A stretch of DNA of 64,000 nucleotides from Bugula neritina. Its lineage: Eukaryota; Animalia; Bryozoa. Shown piece after piece: positions 23-56,261 of this stretch. The notes beneath the pieces were generated by a model that saw nothing but the letters and a program-made list of their open reading frames with translations, made no database searches and was not told where the DNA came from. Where the stretch lies: positions 1,517,751-1,581,750 of the forward strand of contig OZ037773.1 in assembly GCA_964035545.1 (NCBI GenBank). The letters run 5' to 3'. Positions within the stretch are counted from its first letter, which is position 1; every line of letters begins with the position of its first letter. Position numbers and translations under genes: made by a program.

Positions 23-30098
<30,076 letters not shown>

Positions 30099-31925: not shown

Positions 31926-34096
31926 ATCAAAGCAATGATTCAGATATTTCCACATAGACAGAATTAAGTTCCTGTTCAGTAAATACAGTCCAATCAGTAC
32001 CAACAGTATGGCTATTCACCAATGACTGTCCAACATATTACCCATATGCGGCACTCCCCTTCCTTCCTCTAGAGCAGTCCAGTGTGATGATCACTTCGAG
32101 TAAGTTCGAATAGGTTTGAGTATTAGTTTTACTATGACTTATAACTTATAAGTATTAGTATGACTATCATTATCATTATGAGTGCCAAATTCAGGATCAT
32201 TATTAATATGAGTGTTAATATTATTGTGGTGGAAATACGACGTTATAGTAGAGTTATCTTTTCATGCACTCTATTTTTATATTTTATGTAAACCGATTAT
32301 GTAATTCAATCCTGTCCGAAAGTTGGCAATTGCCAATTGGCGGGCTCTGACATCAAAACAAGTTCCGATGTCGGAGTCCAATTGTCGGAAGGTGCCGATA
32401 TTCGAGCTCCGACTTTCAGACAGGATGAGAATAAAGAACTTTTTCTTGTATAAAAGGACACGAACTCGCAGTGTAGAATCAGTCTACTACTGGAGCTCGC
32501 CGGATCAAGACTACCTTTTAAAGCATCCACTACACAATAAAGATTTTTCTACTCGAAACCACTACCACATCTTTTTCTTACTATACTGGAGTTATGCTCC
32601 CCACTTAAACTGCATTCTACCCACAAAACTACTACAAAATTTTAGTTTACTAGTAATTTGGTAGTAGTAGTAGTAGTAATAGTATTATTAGTAGTGGTAG
32701 TAGTAGTAGTACCTATGCCTATAGCTATACTAATACTGTAGTACTACTAGTATTACTATTAGTGTTAGTATTAGTATATCTATTAATATTACTATTACTA
32801 ATATTATTACTAATACTATACATATAGTATGAGTTAGGTGCAATAATGGAGAACTTGAGAAAAGCCTGTGTTCTAAATTGGAAATGTAGCAAAATTTATT
32901 ACCATTACTATTGGTATTGCTATTACTATTAGTTAAAGAATAAAAATATCAACACCTTGTAATTGTTGTAATTATTATTAAAAAGTATAATGTTTGTTTA
33001 TCATAGTGGTAGTTATAATGATAATCATATCTATTCAATCACTAATGACTAAGACTAACAAATGCACGGCAGAAACTGATGTTTTAAATTTATCATTATT
33101 CTTTATCATAATTTATTTAGGATTTGTAATTATTTTACTTGATAAATTTACCTATCATATTTGAAACTATATGTATTGAATAAATACTAATAGACTTGGT
33201 ATTACTATTAGTGATAAGTCAATAAACAACATCAATAATAATAAGTTTGAAGAACTATAAAAATAATCATACTTAGCAAATATTTTTGATATTTTTATAC
33301 TTCTATAGTGTAAAGTGGAAAGATCAAACTTACTTTTTACCCAGTCTTTGGAGTCAATACCTATGGCTTAAAATATAGTTTAAGTGGGCAAAAAATTTCA
33401 ATTTTAGTATTTGGCTACTTTTTCTTTCAGCTGCATGTGTTTTTATCATCTCAGTATTTTTCATTTGAGTATTTGCTTGTATTTTATTCTGGTACTCCTG
33501 TTTATCCGATGTCTTAATAACTGAAATATAAGTTTATATAATTATATATAATCAATGCTGGTGATGACAATTAAGGTTCTAAAATTATTTCTCAAATTGC
33601 TTAGTTCTACATTGTTATTGTTGAATTGACCCGTTAAAATTTATGTTGAACTGAATAGTTTTAGTTGATTTTTTGTGGCATTTTAGTTTTATTTTGATAA
33701 GTATTCACATTTGAGTTGATGTTTGCATTGTCATCGGTCAGTTGAGTATATTTACTATAAAATTCTATTTGTAGTACATTGCCATATTTCAAGGATATGT
33801 CAATTCTAATCTTTGTCTAATCATATAGAAAATAGGCAATTACTTTCAGCAGAAGCATAAATAAACAACTTATCGTATTATATGTTCTTGGATTTTTATT
33901 TTACTAATGCAGGAGAGCAGCATTAGAGAAGTAAATAATGTAATGTCCGTCACTCTAAAATGAAATGTAGACTTTTCACGCTATGGCTATATTTTAGCAA
34001 GAATCTGAGTTTAAAATTAACATTTTATGCCAAATTTACAGGCTTCAGATTGAAATTTCTCTGATGCTTGACTGAATCAGTTCAAGAATAATGTGC

Positions 34097-36204: not shown

Positions 36205-42519
<6,315 letters not shown>

Positions 42520-43140: not shown

Positions 43141-44923
43141 AGTGATTTGTTGGTCTTTTAAGTTTTACTCACAAATAACTAGGCCATGACATTCAGTTTC
43201 ACATTGATAATAACTATAAAACTTGAAGTAAAATACTTTAACTAAAACTTTTACTTTAAGTTTAAGGTTAAAATTCAAATACCAATAGTAATAGTAAGCA
43301 ATACTAATACTAATAGTAAATAGTAATACTCTAATAGTAATACTAATAGTAAAACTAAATTATTATTATAAATTAATAATAATATAATCAAAAATATTGA
43401 ATAACTATCAGTATTACTATTACTATAAGTAGTATAAGTCAAAGCTTCAAGTTTGAAATTATGAAATCATCGCAATTAATATTTATATTATCATTATGAT
43501 TATGATACTAATAGTAATATTTGATTGTATATTGTCAATAAGTGAGTTTAAGTATTAATAAGTTCTATATTTTAATTTAATAATTTCAAATTAAATTTGA
43601 TGTTTTTATTATCAATATAATTTATATTACATTTAATTTATAATGAATAGTTTTCCATTTATCATTAGATTGATGATTATGATAATATTAATTGTCATAA
43701 TCATTGTCAAACTTGAAGTTAATGACTATCACAATGGCAATGTGCTCCTATTAGTACTTGTACATGTAAAACTAATCCTAGTAATAGTTGTTCATATTAT
43801 TATTAAATTATTCATATTGTTGCTATAAGTGAAATAAAGTCACCAAACCTACAAAATTGCAAGCAAAGGCATCAAACATGTTCAATATGAATAAGTTTAA
43901 TTAATGATTTATAACCATATCAATTTTGATATTCAATTTTGGTTGTACATCCAATTTACTTACATGTCTGCTGAGAGTTAGTCTAATAACTAATTTTAAT
44001 AATTTGAATCAGTTGTAATGCTAAACAGTAATAAGGTATGGTAGCAAGTATAAAAGATTTCAATTTGTTAGAGTTTCATACTGTCGGATAATTTTTGTTT
44101 ATTGCTTCCATTTTATTCATTGTATTTAGTTTTACAGTTGCTGGCTACAGTAATGGTTTTTTTTCCATGTAATTGTATTAAGAATTTTCTCATTTTTTAT
44201 GATTAATATTATAGTAAAATTATTATGGTTATATCTGTGTTCATCATTTTTACTTAGTCTTATCACTAGCATTTATTAATAGTATAATAATCTATGCTTA
44301 TAATTGTTAATTTAGATAAAATCATCTTGCTTAAATTGTCAATTAGACAGATATTCAATATTATAGTTTTGTGCTACTAGTAGTTTTATAGTTAGTTAGT
44401 AAAAGTCAAGGCCAGCATCAGTAATAGTAATAATCTATCAGCAATGAAGAGTAATAGTACAGGTAGTCATAGAAAGCCGAAATTCTAAAAAATTTAATAT
44501 GTACCAATGACAATTTGTATTCTGTTAATTTAAAATTGTAATCAGTTGGTAGTTGCTATAAATTGAGATTAACATATAGCATTATCACAAGGAGGGGGAC
44601 AGAATTTGCATTAATATTTTATGATAGGAAAATAATAGTGTTATTTTTAATTCGATGTAATTGAAAAATTCGGTGCTTTTATCAAATTTTGTAATAAGCT
44701 AATGTTTAAAGCTGTGCTTTCTGTAATTTTATTCACATCAGTCTACAAACAATAAATTAGTTATAAATTTACTCTGGATTTATGAATAATTTCCACCATT
44801 ATTGTTTTACTTAATTTTCTGCCAATAGCACCAAGAAATATCTAATAGCATTCTAATGAGATTCAATTTTGTTTTGTGATTAAAAACATTTATTTAGTGT
44901 CCACTTTTAATATTGCAGAAAGT

Positions 44924-47539
44924 ATGGAAGATGATGATGTCTCTATATTATATAGCCATGGGGATAAACCAATCAGCCAATCAGATTTAGTTGTGTGCTT
45001 TTCTGCTGACTTCAATAGAAGGCAACTTCCGAGCAGTCATGAAGGCGCAATAGAAAGTATTTGGAGTAGCCGTTGCTCTGCTAACAAGACTTTGTGGAAT
45101 GGAAGCAAATTTAGACTTCACTCTGTTTCAACATCAGAAAGCGGAAGGTTAGAATGATGAGGTATAAACCAGTCTCTGCTTTCATATTTTATCAGGCAAC
45201 TATTTGGCACTTAGCAATATGGAGTTGTCTCTCTTGCTTACTGTTCAGTGGCCGTGAGAAGACCAATACTGTTGAACACATCATTTTACCATCAAGAATT
45301 TATATTGTATTTTTTTTGGAGTTGCTTTCTCTCTCTTAAATTCATCTAAATAGGACTGTTTTTCTAACCACCTTGTTTCCTGTCAACTGGTAGGACCCAA
45401 TGGAACCTTGGGCTAACATGTTACAAAGATTTTCTTGGTACCAACTTTTCTCCAGATGCGGACCTCTTACAGGAAATGGGGAGGAACGCTGCTGGCAACT
45501 CGCAGGCATTCATGGCTGACCCTCTGGGTGAGTGTCTGTTGCAAAGAGCTCGCTTCTTGTCACTGATGAGTCACTGATGAGTCACTTTCCAGTGACTGTT
45601 ATTTAACTGATAAGTAGTTGTTGGGTGAGTTTTGAGTAACTGGTGAGTGGTTGTTGAGTCACTGTTGATTTACGATTGATTAACCGCATAGTAACTGGTG
45701 CAACTGAGTCGGCAGAGGGACTCGTTGTTCAGTTTGCAGAAATATCTCGCTCAAAAGTTGCTATAAAGACTCAGCTCTCTTATTTCGATGTTTTATAGGT
45801 GTGGGGTGTGTGCTATTGACCTCCGACAATCAAATAGTACTATTGAAAAGAAGTGGTGAGTGTGCAGAGGCTCCTCTATTGTATGATGTACCCGGGGGCC
45901 ACCCTGAACCCGAGGTAAGTGAAACCACCACGGAAGAAGATCTGGTACTTTGGCCCTCAGACACAAAAATTCATGTTGCTGAAAATACTTATGATTTGAG
46001 TAACAATGCCAGAATAATTAATATCGTCAACGAAATGAGGCTAGTAAGATTTGGGTTGTCACAGCATAAATAAACTAGCTTTGTCACAGCTTACAGTCTG
46101 TTTGGTAGTATAATATTCATACACATGTTCTGTACACATGGAGTTATGTGCTCATATGTTTGTTCATATTATAGTTGTCTTCCCCACAGTCTTTTGCTTG
46201 AGTTTTGTTTTTCTATTTGAATCAAGGTGTGTTTGTCCTGCTAAATTTACACTATATCCTCTACACTACTATATCCTCTGCACTACTGTATCCTCTACCC
46301 TACTATATACTCTACACTTCTATATACTCTACACTACTATATCCTCTACACTACTATATCCTCTACACTACTATATCCTCTACACTACTATATCCTCTAC
46401 ACTACTATATACTCTACACTACTATTTCCTCTACACTACTTTATCCTCTACACTTCTATATCCTCTACACTACTATATCCTCTACACTACTATATCCTCT
46501 ACACTACTATATCCTCTACACTACTATATCCTCTACACTACTATATCCTCTACACTATTATATCCTCTACACTACTATATCCTCTACACTACTATATCCT
46601 CTACACTACTATATACTCTACACTACTATTTCCTCTACACTACTTTATCCTCTACACTTCTATATCCTCTACACTACTATATCCTCTACACTACTATATC
46701 CCCTACACTACTATATCCTCTACACTACTATATCCTCTACACATGTATTTAAATGTCATCTGTTAATATTTTTCAGGAAATTTTGCGCGGTGCATCAAAC
46801 ACATCTCTATTCACACCTGAGGCCATTGTATCTGAGATATTTTCGTCGATACTACGAGAAGTGCGAGACGAGGTCAACTTGCCCCTCCATTCTCTCAGTG
46901 CCCCTCTGCTACTTGGCGTGGCCCTCAACAAACACAGTCACAATAGACCCAGTTCTGAATATCTTGTAAGGTGGGTTGAGCTACTCCTCACTCATCTACA
47001 TCTAGGGCTAGTGCTGTAGCAATTGATGGATCTAATTCTGTTGGGCAAGCAACTCGTGTAGTTTGATTTAGAAATACACTTGTTTCTTTTAAAGATGGCT
47101 GTTTCAATATTTTCCACCTTGGCTCATATTAGCTATTCTATACAATATTTTGTTCAGCTTTAATCTTGAACCACTGTGGGTTTATTTAGATATTTAGATA
47201 AATTAATTTTGAACGTGAATCACCTCTATTGGGGAGACAACTCTGACAGCTTGGCTAGCTTATAGAACCTCATAATTTTGTCTGTCACCAGGCTACACTA
47301 AAGTCTACTTTTATTCTGAAATATTCAGGACGGAGTTATCTGGCTGTGAGGTCACCACTCTGTATAATACAGGAAGTCAGAGTGAGGCTAGTGAGTCAAC
47401 ACAAGTCCATCTCGTGTCACATGACCAGCTGATGAGCATACAGCAGACGAACTTCTGGCAGGACCTAGCTCCTAGTGCTAAGGGCTGTTTCCTTCTCTAC
47501 CAGGACTTTGTTAGACACAGCTGCAGTACTCAGTGCTGA
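44924..47539 (+). CDS. NUDT22: Nudix hydrolase 22 (UDP-glucose/galactose pyrophosphatase-like), 5 coding exons
   Basis: Exons 44924-45147, 45394-45527, 45799-45914, 46777-46970, 47329-47539 splice in frame: [66 protein letters not shown]. Confidence 0.92.
46248..46742. repeat. 17-bp minisatellite (ATCCTCTACACTACTAT)n in NUDT22 intron 3
   Basis: Direct periodicity; explains the 204-aa and 254-aa spurious ORFs. Confidence 0.92.
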
Positions 47540-48728
47540 TTTATGATCTGTATGTCTAGTTATCAAATTATTGTAGCTAGACTCAATTAAGAACTTTTCT
47601 ATTTAACAACTGTGCAATTACATTACTTGTGTAAAACATTGTGAATAATATATTCATTACCTTTTTGTTATAATAAATCTGAAACTCTGTTTGTAACTAT
47701 AAAATATGTAGCCAATTTTTATAATGTTTTCAGAAATGTTGTTTTTACCCTAAATTAAATGAAATACCTAGTTTTCACATGCCAACCCCTTTCTTGTAGG
47801 TTTGAATTTTCTTCTGGTAAATGCCCTTCTAAGTCTGTAGCACATCTAATCTATGGCAATATTTGCTACCTACTTATACGTTTTTCATGCAAGCATAATT
47901 ATTACTTCTGTTGCTTATTGTCTCACTATAATTATTTTTAAATCGTGTAGCATGTCCTCCTGGATTTTGCAGCTGTGGCGTCGAGTTTGGTTGTAATAAA
48001 AAATTCGCGCACAATTTCCTATAGAGTTGTCTTCTTTTTCAGAAGCTAAGCAATCCAGGCCAAAACTTGTTCTACTATTTTAGCGCTAGTTTCTATTGTT
48101 TGTGCACGACAATTAGACTATTTGTTATCTCTTGTAGCGACTAAAGTTGCCGTGTTCTACGATGTTTCCGTTAGCTCTGAATAATAATTATAATATTTAT
48201 TATTTTTTAATATAGTAGATTTTTCATCCAATAACACTATAATATAAGTTGAAATATATAAATATTCTAATTATTGCAATATATTATATTAAAATAATAC
48301 TAATAGTATACTTCAACTTGTATTATTAAGTTATTGAAGGTAAGATCTACAACTCTGAACTCATGTTTCACTACTACCACTAGTTTAAATAATCGTTTGT
48401 TTTATAATCATAATGATAATCATAAAATAAAAAAATCTTATTAAATCCTTTTTTAGGTAAACTTTACTTAACAATTAAAATCTATAAAGCAATTATTAAA
48501 TTAATGTTATCATTAGTATTACTATACTATTAGTATTACTATCAGTATGACTATGAGTCATACTCATACTGTATGACTATGAGTATGAGTATCAGTATTA
48601 GACTTAGTATTACTATTAGTATTAGATTTAGTATTACTATTAGTATTAGGAATAGTATTAATATTAGTATTGCTATTACTATTAGTATTAGTATTACATA
48701 TATTATAAGTATAAGATTTGGTAACTTT

Positions 48729-49080
48729 TGTAGTGAGTAGTGCAAGTACAAATACAGGAATCGCCCTCTCCCTACTCTTGGAATACTTAGACTCTTATGC
48801 GGCAACCAATTAGCAGCTCCGGAAGATATGCTTCCGAGTCACGTGACACTTCCCGGGTTATTAACATTATATCACGTTGTTGTAAGCGGAGGCTTGTAGT
48901 AGTAACATGTGTTAGTAGTTGACTCTTGTATAGGATAATTTGATGTGATGTTTGGTTTATGCTTTATTGTGGATAATAAATATAATTACTCGACAGCTAC
49001 CTTAGTAATTGATAACAGAATAACCAGCTAACTATACGCAAGTAAATAACTCACGCTCAGTAATTGCACAAATTACTACA
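48729..49080 (+). repeat. 5' LTR (352 bp)
   Basis: TGTAGT...ACTACA; no difference from the 3' LTR found by eye; contains a GTCACGTGAC palindrome and AATAAA. Confidence 0.95.
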
Positions 49081-49081
49081 G

Positions 49082-49099
49082 TGGTGGCAGCAGTGGGAT
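49082..49099 (+). other. Primer-binding site complementary to a tRNA-Leu (AAG/TAG-type) 3' end
   Basis: TGGTGGCAGCAGTGGGAT starts 1 nt after the LTR; matches the complement of ...AUCCCACCGCUGCCACCA with one mismatch. Confidence 0.75.
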
Positions 49100-49115
49100 C
49101 TTGCGTATAGCAGTC

Positions 49116-50003
49116 ATGGCAGAAGACGGCACGGAGCTACCCATTCCACTGAATGAAGGTGAGAGAGATAATGTTGATATACCTGTGGAACCAGTGGTGT
49201 TAGATGAAGAAGTGAGAATTCTTAGAGAGCATGGTGAAGATAGATATCGGCTGAAGGCGCCCAACTTCACTGGCGAAGAAGCAGTGGAGCAGTTCATCCA
49301 AGAATTCCAGGATGTAATGGAGATTGCAGAATGGCCGCCAAGGGTGGCGTTGCTAAAGCTCAGGATGGCGCTGACGGGCAAAGCTAAGCCGTACGGAGCT
49401 GGACCTGACATAGACGGAATCTTTGCTTCCCTGCGGGCCCGTTTTGGCATCTCTCCCATAGATGCGCGGGCCCGTCTACAGAGGATGCAGCGTGATCCTC
49501 ACACGTCACTAGAAGAGCACGCTGCCACGGTGTACCCATTAGCGCAGATCGCATTCCGCGATCTGCCTCCGGTACACCGTGAGAGGTATACCTATGATGC
49601 CTTCGTGCAGTCCATCAACGACTTGGGGCTCCACCATCAACTCCAAGCGAGGGGAGTCACCACAGTCGAAGATGCACTTGCGGTGGGAGAAGCCTATCTC
49701 TTGGCGACTCATATGCACCGCAACCGCGTGGCCTCCCGCCAGGTGACCACGGAGCACTCTACTGCTCACACCGAATTAAATGCGGAACCCTCCGCGGTGG
49801 CTAGTGTGAACCAGATGTCACTAGCGTCAAAAATCTCACAGATGACTGACATGCTAGATAAACTGGTCACCACATTAGCCTCCCCAAGCCAGGTAGATAC
49901 TGCCCGTGAGCCTTGCGGGCCGCAGGTACAATCACCAGGCATGGGGCACCACTTCTGCTGGGAATGCGGAAGGCCAGGACATTTCCAGAGAAACTGCCCT
50001 TAA
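49116..50003 (+). CDS. gag: Gag (capsid-like domain plus CCHC zinc knuckle), 295 aa
   Basis: First ATG after the PBS; PNFTGEEAVEQFIQEF...W...ALTGKA retrotransposon-gag motif; CWECGRPGHFQRNC. Confidence 0.88.
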   Translation: MAEDGTELPIPLNEGERDNVDIPVEPVVLDEEVRILREHGEDRYRLKAPNFTGEEAVEQFIQEFQDVMEIAEWPPRVALLKLRMALTGKAKPYGAGPDIDGIFASLRARFGISPIDARARLQRMQRDPHTSLEEHAATVYPLAQIAFRDLPPVHRERYTYDAFVQSINDLGLHHQLQARGVTTVEDALAVGEAYLLATHMHRNRVASRQVTTEHSTAHTELNAEPSAVASVNQMSLASKISQMTDMLDKLVTTLASPSQVDTAREPCGPQVQSPGMGHHFCWECGRPGHFQRNCP

Positions 50004-50014
50004 CTCCCACCAGG

Positions 50015-52273
50015 GTTAAACTACCCCGGCCCGCAGATGTTCCCACCTCCTGCGGGCCGTCTGTGAATCACCCAGGGAGGCCCGCGCGTCTGTCGCCCCG
50101 CTGGGCGCCGCGCGGAGATGCTGTGAAGTGGCGACCCCCGCGGCAAGTAGGCTCAAGCCACTCGCCGCCTGGGTCCTCTACGCCACTCCGGCACCAACAC
50201 GGAGCCGGCAGACGGTTGACCACAGAGCCTGCGAGGGAAACGGTACAAGCGCCGCAAGGCGTACCGCCCCAACCTCGGCAGCTGGTCAATAGTCGCCGCC
50301 AACCGTGGACCCCTCGACCCACAGCGAGGGAGGTGCAACCACGGCACACTCAATTGCAGCCGCACGGAAGTAGCTACTTCCTGCCAGGGAAGTTAGCCGG
50401 CAAGCCTGCCAACTTCCTCCTTGACTCCGGCTGCACCACCAACCTCCTTAGCCGTCAGTTCTTTGACACCCTCAGCGCTAAGGTCAAGGACAGGTTGGCA
50501 CCGTACGAGGGGGATCATGGCACCTTGGCAGACGGGTCGTGCATTCCATTCTACGGCATTATTGAGCTAACTGGTTACGTCCGTAACCAGGCCATCCAAG
50601 AGACGTTTATCGTCGGGCAGCTCAACGAGGATGCTATCCTCGGGATGCCATTCTTACAACGACACGGTTGTCGCATCGATTTCAGTAAATCTGCGATAAT
50701 CATGGGCGACAAGGAGCTCGCTTGTGTCGATAAGTTTGGTCGTCCTCTAGCGGGAGCAGTGCAGGTAGTACGGAGCTGTACTATACCAGGCCACTCCCGG
50801 GCTACCGTCCGCTGCAAGGTAGACGGTGGCCAAACCTCTAAGTTGGGAGTTGTCGAAAGTACGCACTCGAGAGTCCAACTTGCCCGTAGTTTTAGCCGGC
50901 TCACGGGGCAAGGAGAGATCTCAGTGCAGTGTGTCAACCCCTTCTCAGAGACAGTAGACCTACCACCCAGATCCATGCTGGGTCGCTTCCATCCTGTCCA
51001 GGAGGAAGCCATTGGGCCGTCGTCGGGAGCTACGACGGAAGGTCCTCAGCAGAGCCCGTCTCGAGGGCGGAGGACCGTCCCAACCCACGCCTCCCCTCCT
51101 CCAGGGACGCGTGGCTGCACAGGCAATGGGAAGCGCCAGGCTATGGCTAGGTTGCCACATGGGTACAGTGAGGCGTTCAGCCACACAGACCACGGAGCCC
51201 GCCTAAATAGAGCAGGCTGCCGTGAGGTACCACGGGCGGCGAGGACCGCCCCTGCTCAGCCACTTCAACAGAGGGCTGACACGCCCCCGGAGGCTGCCCA
51301 GAGCCTCCGCGCCAAACCTGTATGGGCTGGTAACGTTAGGGAGCTGCCGAAGCTCCAGGAATGCCTTCCTGGGGTGGTAGCCGACGTGTACCGAGCGAAA
51401 CAGGAGGGGCGACGACCCAGTAGTACACAACGGCGACAGGGATGCGCCGAGTTACGGCTGTACTGTCAACGTTGGAGCTCTCTGCGGGTCGGGCCAGATG
51501 GTCTGCTAACCATGACCTTGGCCGCCAACAACGGACAGCCAGCCAGGAAGAGGGTTGTCTGCCCAGTTGCCATCCGCCGGAAGTTGATACAAGACACCCA
51601 CGAGGAGACTCACGGAGGAGTCCAAGGGGTGGTCACCAAGCTACAACTCCGGTGGTACTGGCCTAACATGGAACGGGATATCCGACGCAGAGTGAGACGG
51701 TGCAAAGTCTGCCAGACCAACAAGCATAGCCGTCTCCCTGGTGAAGCGGGGCGGCAGACGCATTGTGCGAGAAGGTCTCGGCAGGCGGAGACTGTCAACC
51801 TGGCCGGAAACACCTCCATGACACGTCAGGAAGACTTGGCGAGGCGAGAAAGGCCACTTCCGTCCTTGAAAGTGCGCCCACCGCCCCCAACGTCAAGCCT
51901 GCCATCATCACCACTTCCGGAACCAGAAACAGGTCCGGAAGTGCAAAAACCCCCCGTGGGAGGGGCTCCGCAAGGAGATACCAACATAGGACCAGGACCA
52001 TACACTAGGCAACTTCCAGCGTGTCTCAGAGACTGTGTACGTGACCGCGGTATAAGCGGCAGTAACAAAAGTCTAGAGAGGCCTCGCATGGGAAAACAGG
52101 CAAAGAGCCGTGGGAGTTGTGATCACCACGAGAATCTCAACTTTTGCCTCGGCGGAATCTCACACGAGATTCATCCGCTGGAAGTGAAAAGCCCTAGTCA
52201 CGTTTCACAACCACGCTGTCCGGTCTTTTCCTATGTTGATGCAGTCGAGAGTAGACGTGCCAGTAAACAGTAG
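50015..52273 (+). CDS. pol: Internally deleted Pol (-1 frame): aspartic protease, RT N-terminal stub, integrase HHCC finger, C-terminal tail
   Basis: FLLDSGCTTNLLS and ILGMPFL (protease); THEETHGG...WYWPNMERDIRRRVRRCKVCQ (H2C2); no YxDD, no RNase H, no D,D35E core. Confidence 0.82.
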   Translation, partial: VKLPRPADVPTSCGPSVNHPGRPARLSPRWAPRGDAVKWRPPRQVGSSHSPPGSSTPLRHQHGAGRRLTTEPARETVQAPQGVPPQPRQLVNSRRQPWTPRPTAREVQPRHTQLQPHGSSYFLPGKLAGKPANFLLDSGCTTNLLSRQFFDTLSAKVKDRLAPYEGDHGTLADGSCIPFYGIIELTGYVRNQAIQETFIVGQLNEDAILGMPFLQRHGCRIDFSKSAIIMGDKELACVDKFGRPLAGAVQVVRSCTIPGHSRATVRCKVDGGQTSKLGVVESTHSRVQLARSFSRLTGQGEISVQCVNPFSETVDLPPRSMLGRFHPVQEEAIGPSSGATTEGPQQSPSRGRRTVPTHASPPPGTRGCTGNGKRQAMARLPHGYSEAFSHTDHGARLNRAGCREVPRAARTAPAQPLQQRADTPPEAAQSLRAKPVWAGNVRELPKLQECLPGVVADVYRAKQEGRRPSSTQRRQGCAELRLYCQRWSSLRVGPDGLLTMTLAANNGQPARKRVVCPVAIRRKLIQDTHEETHGGVQGVVTKLQLRWYWPNMERDIRRRVRRCKVCQTNKHSRLPGEAGRQTHCARRSRQAETVNLAGNTSMTRQEDLARRERPLPSLKVRPPPPTSSLPSSPLPEPETGPEVQKPPVGGAPQGDTNIGPGPYTRQLPACLRDCVRDRGISGSNKSLERPRMGKQAKSRGSCDHHENLNFCLGGISHEIHPLEVKSPSHVSQPRCPVFSYVDAVESRRASKQ

Positions 52274-52296
52274 TCAGTTACCACTTTCATTCCAAA

Positions 52297-53350
52297 ATGT
52301 CTTACTATTCTGGATCGAAGGGTGAGTTAATTATGTTTTTGGTACGATAACTAGACTGCATCAGTCAGCTTAGCTACACTAGCTAAGCTGGAGATTCGAT
52401 AATGATAAACAGTGGTGGGAATACACGTCGACTTTGATTTTAAATAATCTGTCATAGCGAGTGTGTTCTCCATCAACTATTCATTAGCCTGAATCTCACG
52501 AGTGTAACTGAACAGAGTACCGGTCAGGCTGTACACGCCGACGGTGCCTCAGTGTATAATCTTTAACACTGCTACTCTTTCAGATCACACTCGAGTGACC
52601 ACCTCCCGGTCACGGGACCAGCCAACCTCTCTGTCTATGGAAGAAGAGCCTGTAATGGAGAATGGCATACCAGTAGTACTCCGCCGACGACACCGTTGGG
52701 TGTCACCCACGACAGAGAGGAGAATTGAAGAAGCCTGGGGACCCAGTGGACCACACCGAACCTGCCAGGTCTGCTTTGAGGAGTGCCCGTCGCACCGCTC
52801 CTTGCGTTTACATGTAGATGCCCATTTCCTACTCCACTTCTGTCCCTGCGGGTTCCACGACGTCTACCCGTATCCCGTGACAGTACATAAGCTAAGCTGC
52901 TTCGCCGCAGAGAACCACACTGTTGATGAAGACAGTTTCCCCCTATACCTGGATGCCATCAAACCAGTCATCAGGAAGGCTATTACCCTGGCCGCACTAA
53001 CGTCAGGGTTTCACGTACTGTTACTATCTGCCCGCCATAAGTCCCCTATGGTTCAGGGCCCACCTCCTACCCCCGTCAACCCTAGCAACACCCCAGAAGT
53101 AGAAGAAACAACCATATCCCGTATAACGGAGACCCCTATAACCCCACCAAGGCCTAGCCAGCTGGCTAACGTAGAAGAGCGGCTTCTAAGACTGCAAGCC
53201 GAGTTCACACAACTTGCCCCTGACTTGCTGGATACGACGACAGGTCTATACCAGTTGAAGGACTCAGTGGGACGACTGAAGAGGCGGCTACGGGCCCGAC
53301 AGGCTCGACACAGAGCACGGTCGCTACAAGAAGCAGAGTCCAACCAATGA
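52297..53350 (+). CDS. ORF3 of the LTR element: C2H2/C2HC zinc fingers plus coiled coil; probably two exons (52297-52321, 52584-53350), 263 aa
   Basis: CAAAATG start, G|GTGAGT donor at 52322, TCTTTCAG| acceptor at 52583, in-frame join. Contains C-x2-C-x12-H-x3-H then C-x-C-x12-H-x3-C, and a heptad-repeat C-terminus. An unspliced alternative starts at ATG 52637. Confidence 0.7.
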
Positions 53351-53629
53351 GAATGCCTGGGGTAGGCACCTTCGTTGAGCTATAGCTCGTTTGGAATGTG
53401 ACGAGCGCTCCGACATTGGCTCGCGTGCTGGTAAGCACCCTCTCTCTTAATAGCTGACTAGATGTGTGTGATCGATCACCCTGTTGTCTTCTAATGTAAA
53501 CGTTGTCGTGTTTAACTATTTCTTTTCTTACTCTTTGTGGGTTTACTTATGTATATTTTCCTTTTTGGATTATTGTATGGTTTTTCATTATGTTTTTTAT
53601 TGTGTTATCAGAAAGTAGGGCTTTCTGCT

Positions 53630-53640
53630 GGGGGGGACGG
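53630..53640 (+). other. Polypurine tract
   Basis: GGGGGGGACGG immediately 5' of the 3' LTR. Confidence 0.8.
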
Positions 53641-53992
53641 TGTAGTGAGTAGTGCAAGTACAAATACAGGAATCGCCCTCTCCCTACTCTTGGAATACTT
53701 AGACTCTTATGCGGCAACCAATTAGCAGCTCCGGAAGATATGCTTCCGAGTCACGTGACACTTCCCGGGTTATTAACATTATATCACGTTGTTGTAAGCG
53801 GAGGCTTGTAGTAGTAACATGTGTTAGTAGTTGACTCTTGTATAGGATAATTTGATGTGATGTTTGGTTTATGCTTTATTGTGGATAATAAATATAATTA
53901 CTCGACAGCTACCTTAGTAATTGATAACAGAATAACCAGCTAACTATACGCAAGTAAATAACTCACGCTCAGTAATTGCACAAATTACTACA
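53641..53992 (+). repeat. 3' LTR (352 bp)
   Basis: Direct repeat of 48729-49080. Confidence 0.95.
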
Positions 53993-54705
53993 CTTTCACC
54001 TAGTAATAGTAATAGCAATAGTATTATTATTACTATTACTATTACTATTACTACTAGTATTGGTAACTGAGTCTGACTAACTCACAACATTAACAGTAAC
54101 ACTAAGTCTAACTGTAACTGTAAAGCTAAATACAGATACAAATTGAAATATTTATTGTAACAGTCAGTAATACTAATACTATTAGTAAAGTGGTAGTATC
54201 AGATCAGTTATACTCCTAGTTATACTAATTAGTAATTAGTAATTACTATTAGATTTAGACTTTAGTCTTACTGTTTGCGTTGCAGTATGAGTTACTCTTA
54301 TTCATAGTAATTACTAATTAGTATTATTTTTACTATTAGCACTATTTATTATTAATAAGTGTCATTAAAATCATTATATTTATTTAATTTTTTAGTGATT
54401 TAATTTTACTATACTGTAATTATTCCAGCTATTATAAGTATAACTATTACTAAAAGTAATTTGCTATTATACTTAGTCTTAGAGGAATCACAGAGCAAAT
54501 ACTTGCTTTGCAGTGACAATTACTAATAGTGTTAGTGTTACATTTACATTATGATCAAGTTGAACTTAAAGTTAAAGCATTAGTGTTAGTATAACAAATA
54601 CAATAACATTAATAATAACAGTTCTTAAGTGTGTTTAACATACTGTAAGACAATAATTACAAAACTGAAAGGTATCTATATTTTCATATTGATAGTTAAG
54701 CTGGG

Positions 54706-56261
54706 ATGCTAAAGAGAAAACTGCGTTCTAACGTTGATCAATTGCTAACAGCCAAGAGGAAAGCTGCAGAAGCAAGATTAGATATCTTGTTCTCTGATGA
54801 TGTTCCGCGGCCCACAAATGTGCAAGAGTGTATAAAATATATCAGAGAGCTGGTCGATTGGCGACAATTTTGTGGTAGGTTTTTGTACACCAAGTAGTTG
54901 TTTGATTTATTTTTGAAAAAAAATGAATCTATCATCTTTTCCTTGCTAAGATTGTAGCTCTTTTTTTTCATCGTCAAATGATATTTCAGTTGTTTACTTA
55001 GCTATCACAAAAATACCATCTTTTTTCAGAAAAGATTCCGCCCATTGTCATACAGAGCCAGTTGTATTCTATCCTTGTGGATCACACACAAATAGACAAT
55101 GAAATTAATACTCTTAGATGTCAAGGTCATATAGTAATCGTCAAACTAGATGCTGGCTATTATGGCATAGTTAATAAGAAGGAGTACTTAAATACAGGTA
55201 TGCTGTGCTCTTTATAGTTCTGGCGTCTTTCATTTTGTGAGCTAAAAGTGTTTGTGAAGAAATCATCTCAGCGTTGCTTAGCACTAGAGTTTGAGAGTTG
55301 CTGTGTATAGTAAGTCTTCACTGACTATAAACTGTGCTCTACAAATTCAGTCTTGTCACGGGTATTGCTTTGTCAGTATCCCGTGCATCTTAACCAACAC
55401 ACAGTGATTCATATTTTATCATGTTTTATTAATTTCACTGTGTATTTATTTTTTATATTACACTCTTTTGGATAGATATGTGTGTTGTTTTATGAACCTT
55501 AGTTGAAAGACAAATTGAAGAACTAGAATTGGAGAAAGAGACAGGAGATGGGTTTATAGCCTTTTGTACTGAAGGTGAATTAGATGTGGAACTCAGTGGC
55601 AAGCAGCTATTGCAAAATCTAACGGAGACACAAATAAATACTTTGGTTAGATCTGGATATCTCACGTCTGAAGTTACAGGTAGCTAAACCATGAAGTTTC
55701 CAACTGATCATGTGATGTTCTGTTTATTTTTAAACTTGAAAAGAGAAAGTAACTTCCAAAGTTTAAACTGTGATATAAACCATTTCCGTACGTTGTTGGC
55801 AAGTTCTATGCTAAAGCATTCAGCTGATCAAACTTTCATTTCAGCTGCCAGGACTTGTGCACGACTTTGTTGAGGCATTTAGGATTTCAAATTTCGTTTT
55901 TATATTTTTAAATTGTAAAATCAAACAGATAGCATATTACTATGAATGTAAATGTTTCACTCTTAGTGGATTTTTTTTTTGTGTATCAACAAATCTGTTT
56001 GTTGTAGGCATGTTTTACCTCTCTATACCAAATGCTGCGCTATTTCTACGCACCTTCAATGATGGACTGAAGTCACTTAAGTCTATAATCAAAAGGTCAA
56101 AGTTTAAAGAAATATTACTGATTGAGCTTCTAAAAAAAGAGGGAAAGAAAACGAAAAAATTAGGAAATATATATTATAGTTTGCATTTAATTGGGGCAGA
56201 GGTAGTAAAGATTGTTGGCACTACATCGGGCCCACTACTCAGATATGTTGAAGAGGATTAA
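54706..56261 (+). CDS. STK19: STK19 (winged-helix DNA repair factor), 4 coding exons
   Basis: Exons 54706-54874, 55030-55197, 55503-55679, 56008-56261 splice in frame: IPPIVIQSQLYS, LVRSGYLT, LSIPNAALFLR, KFKEILLIELL, LIGAEVVKIVGTTSGPLLR. Confidence 0.88.

Follow-up and report, generated by a model that had tools for sequence, protein, structure and literature searches.

A spliced two-finger, coiled-coil third gene in a non-autonomous Ty3/Gypsy element of Bugula neritina

Described systems and the Bugula element

The closest described counterpart of the gene analysed here is CERV of the C. elegans element Cer1. According to the text available for that work, CERV is a spliced product with a peptide shared with Gag, a Cys finger and a leucine zipper; its role in export is proven, and its last exon (exon 5) shares the reading frame of the polyprotein (PMC10309623). 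HIV Rev and similar retroviral export adaptors are described as spliced products, with structured RNA in the intron (PMC10309623, PMC7264820). In Drosophila gypsy, env is a third ORF between pol and the 3' LTR which is expressed from a spliced RNA lacking gag-pol (PMC4276936). Extra ORFs other than env have been described as bdelloid ORF3s (PMC5408684), as plant aORFs and in Botrytis, where Boty carries an antisense ORF (PMC7264820), and as Drosophila sORF2 (PMC11952523). Finally, Cereba/Quinta exemplifies a non-autonomous family that keeps a coding contribution and borrows enzymes (PMC11302176).

The third gene (ORF3) studied here lies in a window of 64,000 nt, the whole stretch of B. neritina DNA that was analysed. 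As far as the available descriptions go, it shares with CERV a Gypsy-type element, a non-Env spliced product, an N-terminal peptide in common with Gag (in the homologue P0012), a Cys finger with a leucine zipper, and a part that is in frame with the polyprotein (in the distant proteins P0251 and P0256). CERV, however, is a large five-exon protein with H/M/G domains and a C4-type loop, whereas ORF3 has 263 aa, two exons, a C2H2 plus a CxC finger and a C-terminal helix. This comparison is one of descriptions only, and no match of ORF3 in Pfam, PDB or a viral-structure search pointed to homology with CERV or Rev. With Rev, which has an Arg-rich motif, ORF3 would share a spliced product, an Arg-rich helix and predicted RNA structure in the intron; unlike ORF3, Rev has no zinc fingers. 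ORF3 resembles gypsy env in position and in its spliced RNA but has zinc fingers instead of a signal peptide, fusion peptide and TM anchor. The other extra ORFs are, like ORF3, family-conserved and near the 3' end, and regulatory roles were proposed for some; in the texts available they are GDSL, DEDDy, TM, coiled-coil-only or antisense ORFs. Quinta contributes Gag only (PMC11302176), whereas the window family contributes Gag and a spliced accessory gene.

The Ty3/Gypsy element with ORF3 occupies 48729-53992 (5,264 nt; ends TG...CA), and LTRs, target duplication and primer-binding site, as well as the polypurine tract, are all present:

48725..48728 (left) and 53993-53996 (right), + strand: target-site duplication CTTT, from the sequence
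48729..49080, + strand: 5' LTR, 352 nt, TG...CA, AATAAA at 48975
49082..49099, + strand: primer-binding site
49116..50003, + strand: gag, open, CCHC knuckle near its end (PF00098, E 2e-4)
49910..52273, + strand: pol frame of 787 codons between stops, with protease and the integrase H2C2 finger as its only domains (Pfam, alignment)
53630..53640, + strand: polypurine tract
53641..53992, + strand: 3' LTR

The two LTRs show no difference over 352 nt, and this copy inserted very recently. Its primer-binding site, which we take to be tRNA-Leu-like, does not match the window's own tRNA-Leu(TAA) gene (25090-25172, - strand; 9 of 15 positions agree). The insertion site is an AT-rich TAT/TAG simple-repeat tract (48500-48728 and 53993-54450); similar tracts occur at about 30400 and at 32650-32830. 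Host exons on the same strand flank the element, belonging to a NUDIX-like gene (44849-46073; PF00293, E 0.003, below the cut-off) and to STK19 (55815-56261; E 6e-9). The window also contains a dispersed SINE- or MITE-like repeat of about 165 nt (2325-2492, 12916-13092, 17688-17818, 27917-28081; both orientations, 79-88% alike) and abundant minisatellite arrays with periods of 8-31 nt (96-14600, 18565-18850, 26000-26960, 37200-37900, 46150-46860).

RT and RNase H of pol are deleted near 51260-51295 and the integrase core is degenerate; Pfam and alignment with pol relatives detected neither RT, RNase H nor an integrase core in the window copy, and the element is non-autonomous. Since gag stops about 12 nt upstream of a G-TTA-AAC slippery-like heptamer (50015-50021), presumably the site of slippage, Gag-Pol is probably not made from the present copy. 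RT was recognised by Pfam in 15 of 43 pol homologues, eight of them at 53-65% identity. The best solved match to the profile of the RT-bearing relatives is Ty3 Gag-Pol (E 7.5e-139), and the PR-RT-RH-IN order with a Ty3-like RT is present within this pol lineage. Ten other pol relatives (53-60% identity; the 99%-identical P0264 was left out) align straight over the point where RT/RNase H is missing. Because these ten diverged relatives share the RT-less join and RT-bearing relatives exist, the RT-less form appears to be an old, diversified family with the RT-bearing relatives as likely helpers. The shared join also bears out the proposal of the first-pass annotation that the third gene was retained despite the loss of the enzymes. 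In the window copy the RT-less pol frame runs through 787 codons without a stop, and long stretches of it are open in the ten relatives too, despite the degenerate integrase core; the truncated Pol, or RNA structure in this region, may be under selection. In P0096 the end of pol is joined directly to the middle of ORF3, probably in a deletion copy.

Splicing of ORF3 and folding of its intron

ORF3 can be drawn with two alternative first exons that share one second exon (slashes mark cuts):

49116..49158, + strand: alternative first exon, 14 gag codons plus G, donor AAG/GTGAGA, phase 1
52297..52321, + strand: ORF3 exon 1, 25 nt (MSYYSGSK plus G), donor AGG/GTGAGT, phase 1
52322..52583, + strand: ORF3 intron, GT/AG, 262 nt, predicted to be strongly folded
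52366-52390, + strand: perfect 11-bp hairpin in the predicted intron fold
52391-52497, + strand: long stem-loop in the predicted intron fold
52584..53350, + strand: ORF3 exon 2, common to both splice forms

The ATG at 52297 lies 23 nt downstream of the stop of the pol frame (TAG, 52271-52273). The model proposed in the first-pass annotation, with this ATG, a GT/AG intron at 52322-52583 and a frame open to TGA at 53350, checks out by arithmetic: 25 plus 767 nt make 792 nt, that is, 263 codons plus TGA. The acceptor reads ...CTCTTTCAG/AT. As had been stated, the intron is AT-richer than exon 2 (GC 0.42 vs 0.55), and it has stops in all three frames.

The junction sought across 52321-52584 was found in public run X1, where one contig joins 52320 to 52583 and lacks exactly 262 nt (GT..AG, cut +1; 28 letters on the short side). 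None of six other runs contained this skip, so that one of seven runs has the junction. If X1 is a DNA library, the contig represents a retrotransposed copy minus the intron, which still proves splicing. Its depth is 843, compared with 6,000-16,000 summed over intron bins, depth being no measure of copy number. Of the joints listed for X1 (15 of 21), five more remove sequence within the intron or at its border, and two reach deeper into exon 2; some deletions hit intron stems. Among the indels listed (at least 12), the intron contains three and exon 2 none.

Among 147 homologues scanned, 32 read in frame across the acceptor: 25 with S/D, three with L/D, two with S/G, P0012 and one pattern mis-hit. 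Since Ser or Leu precedes Asp or Gly, 30 of the 32 fit a YAG/G acceptor; with the splice contig, this marks the gene model as more than a chance pattern. The initial residues of P0002 (67% identical) fit the GTGAGT donor. The exon-1 peptide MSYYSGSK occurs in none of the 32 read-through homologues, and the exon at 52297 could be translated only if ribosomes started internally or re-initiated 23 nt past the pol stop.

The second donor (49158/49159) splits gag codon 15 in the same phase as the donor at 52321. In P0012, a protein (65% identical) from a 5.3-kb contig, 14 N-terminal Gag residues are followed by D-H-T of exon 2; the junction coincides precisely with the GT of the donor and the AG of the acceptor and yields a Gag-leader/ORF3 protein. 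This one protein at 65% identity is the basis for the Gag-leader form; a gag-donor junction is not among the X1 joints listed (15 of 21), and the gag donor is intact in the window. A subgenomic layout from a gag donor is the usual retroviral one, as for gypsy env in the text available (PMC4276936). It places a start codon near the 5' end, and splicing from the gag donor to the exon 2 acceptor would be the most easily translated form.

The intron is predicted to fold at -85.8 kcal/mol (z -4.71; equalled by 0 of 200 shuffles). When 120-nt windows, which overlap, were scanned, 36 of 111 reached z <= -2 between the gag donor and the acceptor, compared with one of 61 outside. One gag window folds as well as the intron (z -6.7), and strong folding is not special to the small intron. 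The residues of P0002 over the 11-bp hairpin fit one G-C to A-U double change deduced from the protein, a hint of a compensatory pair.

The two-finger protein and its relatives

The ORF3 protein combines a finger module with a long helix:

52658..53041, + strand: module of two zinc fingers, flanked by a W-x-S/T helix and VD..F strand/helices (confident model)
52763-52825, + strand: finger 1, C60-x2-C63-x12-H76-x3-H80 (exon-2 numbering)
52841-52900, + strand: finger 2, C86-x-C88-x12-H101-x3-C105 (exon-2 numbering)
53156..53344, + strand: long helix at the C terminus, with leucines in heptads and an end rich in Arg (model)

Structure prediction, as recommended in the first-pass annotation, gave a confident model (mean pLDDT 83, with blocks of 88-98 between residues 31 and 150) in which the two fingers form a compact module that a disordered linker joins to a helix of 60 residues. 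Both finger spacings are as that annotation had given them. Canonical C2H2 fingers have an aromatic residue at the site held here by Cys67, and TGEKP linkers. The description of finger 1 as canonical therefore holds for its C-x2-C-x12-H-x3-H spacing but not for Cys67, for Leu at helix position 6 or for the linker, a hydrophobic one of five residues; this type of linker and a second finger of the C-x-C type recur throughout the family. Of the marks of a classical tandem C2H2 transcription factor, the protein has the spacing of finger 1 but neither a TGEKP-type linker nor a canonical second finger. An Env of the errantivirus type was rejected: ORF3 is spliced as Env would be, but has no signal peptide or TM anchor. 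The best 19-residue hydropathy is 1.43, and 1.6 is exceeded in two of 56 close homologues, in agreement with the claim that no TM segment is present. Together with the splice contig and the conservation of the protein over many subfamilies, this upholds the reading of a spliced, non-Env third gene.

A search with exon 2 picked out 133 homologues from 1,565 candidates; they are 50-74% identical, besides one 100% match. Over 55 aligned relatives the helix is best conserved (identity 0.84), followed by the fingers (0.72) and the flanks (0.65 and 0.58), with the linker far behind (0.31). In an alignment of 63 sequences chosen because they cover the module, each of the seven finger ligands counted, those of finger 1 included, occurs in 61-63 rows; the upstream Trp is shared by 54. 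Seven of the ten exon-2 variants listed (at least ten) are synonymous. A profile search of 1.84 billion proteins gave 125 matches, and close and distant groups align with a probability of 99.2 over 90 columns. Pfam assigned no family to the window protein; eight of the 63 module members weakly match zf-C2H2_4, and only finger 1 matches solved classical fingers (SALL3, E 7e-6; HIC2, E 1e-5). The finger region is net acidic in the window subfamily (4 K+R, 8 D+E); distant members have a basic recognition helix, and the Arg-rich end is not conserved in distant families.

Two distant proteins tie the module to Gypsy pol, as their ORFs carry integrase/SH3 or SH3. In P0251 (1,460 aa) the module (1014-1256) ends an ORF that also encodes RNase H, integrase (rve 296-393) and SH3; in P0256 (757 aa) the ORF has SH3 (134-174) and, again at its end, the module (534-754). 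In both, a low-complexity stretch of about 400-460 residues separates SH3 from the module.

The search for host homologues suggested in the first-pass annotation revealed host-like module genes in Watersipora and Bugula. Of 30 clusters looked up, four have named proteins, all bryozoan: Watersipora subatra XP_067940963/4 and XP_067944745, and Bugula neritina KAF6040922/3. Modules occur in tandem in two of the host-like proteins, and a separate motif at the N terminus is common to three; retro-element domains are absent from all of them. Judged by their sequences, these genes are a host-like gene family. P0240, P0182, P0247 and P0248 represent such genes, each with a single module or a pair; the locus tags of the two from Bugula are adjacent.

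The literature search, with repeat databases and supplements outside it, found no description of the two-finger module. 'Zinc' does not occur in the available text of two surveys of extra ORFs, nor 'zinc finger' or 'zinc' in that of PMC13524379 and PMC8556966, which cover metazoan and annelid Gypsy diversity. The protein family thus appears new; its position is of a known type, and its role probably is too. The earlier claim of an undescribed system stands for the family but not for the kind of system, which is known from CERV, as far as that text is available (PMC10309623). That earlier reading had noted neither the gag donor and the isoform with a Gag leader that it gives, nor the predicted folding of the intron, how widely the module is distributed, or CERV as an analogue in the literature.

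Possible roles of ORF3

In ORF3 a non-autonomous Ty3/Gypsy family carries an intact accessory gene that is spliced. Our preferred reading, to which we give somewhat less than an even chance, is that its product acts as a nuclear adaptor promoting the unspliced RNA of the element itself, like CERV or Rev. Unspliced RNA must be exported, because the splice is seen while the youngest copy retains the intron. Beyond splicing, we infer the following steps. Default early splicing from the gag donor to the acceptor would make ORF3 mRNA; the protein would oligomerise through its C-terminal helix, its Arg-rich end contacting structured RNA found only in unspliced transcripts and its finger module recruiting a host factor. 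Intron-containing RNA thus bound would be exported or escape splicing; Gag would then package the full-length RNA, and a partner family that has RT would copy it. Gag and ORF3 would be retained for their action on the RNA of the element itself; enzymes can be borrowed. If the arrangement resembled that of CERV exon 5, which shares the polyprotein's frame, the in-frame Pol/module ORFs of P0251 and P0256 would be accounted for as well. The adaptor role fits the helix and Arg-rich end as the best-conserved part in close relatives, the CERV-like Gag-leader junction of P0012, and the net acidic finger region, which would suit protein binding better than DNA reading. The strong predicted folding of the intron, the excess of stably folded windows between gag donor and acceptor, the hint from P0002 of a compensatory pair and the lack of a TM segment fit it too. 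Against it argue the single protein behind the Gag-leader form, with no gag-donor junction among the X1 joints listed (15 of 21), the tandem-module host-like genes without retro-element domains, the lack of conservation of the Arg-rich end in distant families, the X1 contigs with deletions in intron stems, and the equally folded gag window. The only named sequence likeness, that of finger 1 to DNA-binding C2H2 fingers, and the basic recognition helix of distant members also speak against an adaptor, and they would be expected of a transactivator or anti-silencing factor that works on the LTRs of the family as a dimer bound to DNA or chromatin, for which Tas/Tax-like and VANC-like proteins are analogies. 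The coiled coil could pair two modules, which host-like genes carry in tandem, and retention in an RT-less family would also be accounted for. Such a factor is possible but less probable, as the linker and second finger are non-canonical, the finger region of the window subfamily is net acidic and the structured intron is left unexplained.

The Gag-leader isoform, the basic tail and persistence in non-autonomous families would also suit an RNA chaperone in the particle or the cytoplasm, or a factor of self-restriction limiting copy number or competing with the autonomous partner; we consider this unlikely, since ORF3 shows no likeness to Gag domains or viral structures in Pfam and a viral-structure search. 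Slightly less likely still is an integrase-associated targeting domain, comparable to a chromodomain/CR, that became a separate gene steering the partner's integration complex. Fused targeting domains have precedent in the text available (PMC11302176), the module follows integrase/SH3 in the same ORF of P0251 and P0256, and the window copy sits in a TAT/TAG tract; but a stop and a frame change part ORF3 from pol, the window family has no integrase core, the low-complexity residues separate SH3 and module even in the fused ORFs, and a weak search for longer fused forms scored none. The host-like homologues might suggest that ORF3 is a fragment taken up from a host gene, a passenger without function for the element; this is very improbable given domain-wise conservation over subfamilies 50-74% identical, the preponderance of synonymous exon-2 variants among those listed, the near-invariant ligands, and splicing of a donor inside gag to exon 2 in P0012.

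In the boldest reading, a so far unrecognised complex-retrovirus-style circuit would exist in invertebrate Gypsy elements, with a new two-finger/coiled-coil family made from two first exons and acting on a structured intronic element; RT-less families would persist for long as suppliers of Gag and a regulator, and the module would have moved between the Pol end, a spliced gene and bryozoan host genes. This wider picture is doubtful at present. Export of intron-containing RNA and silencing evasion by Env-less LTR retrotransposons are known for very few elements, CERV being the case that the literature search brought up. Outside nematodes the question becomes testable with this compact, well-modelled, unnamed family, whose element is young and active, whose intron is defined and which has counterparts among host genes. 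The ORF3 position in invertebrate Gypsy elements may hold regulators rather than Env.
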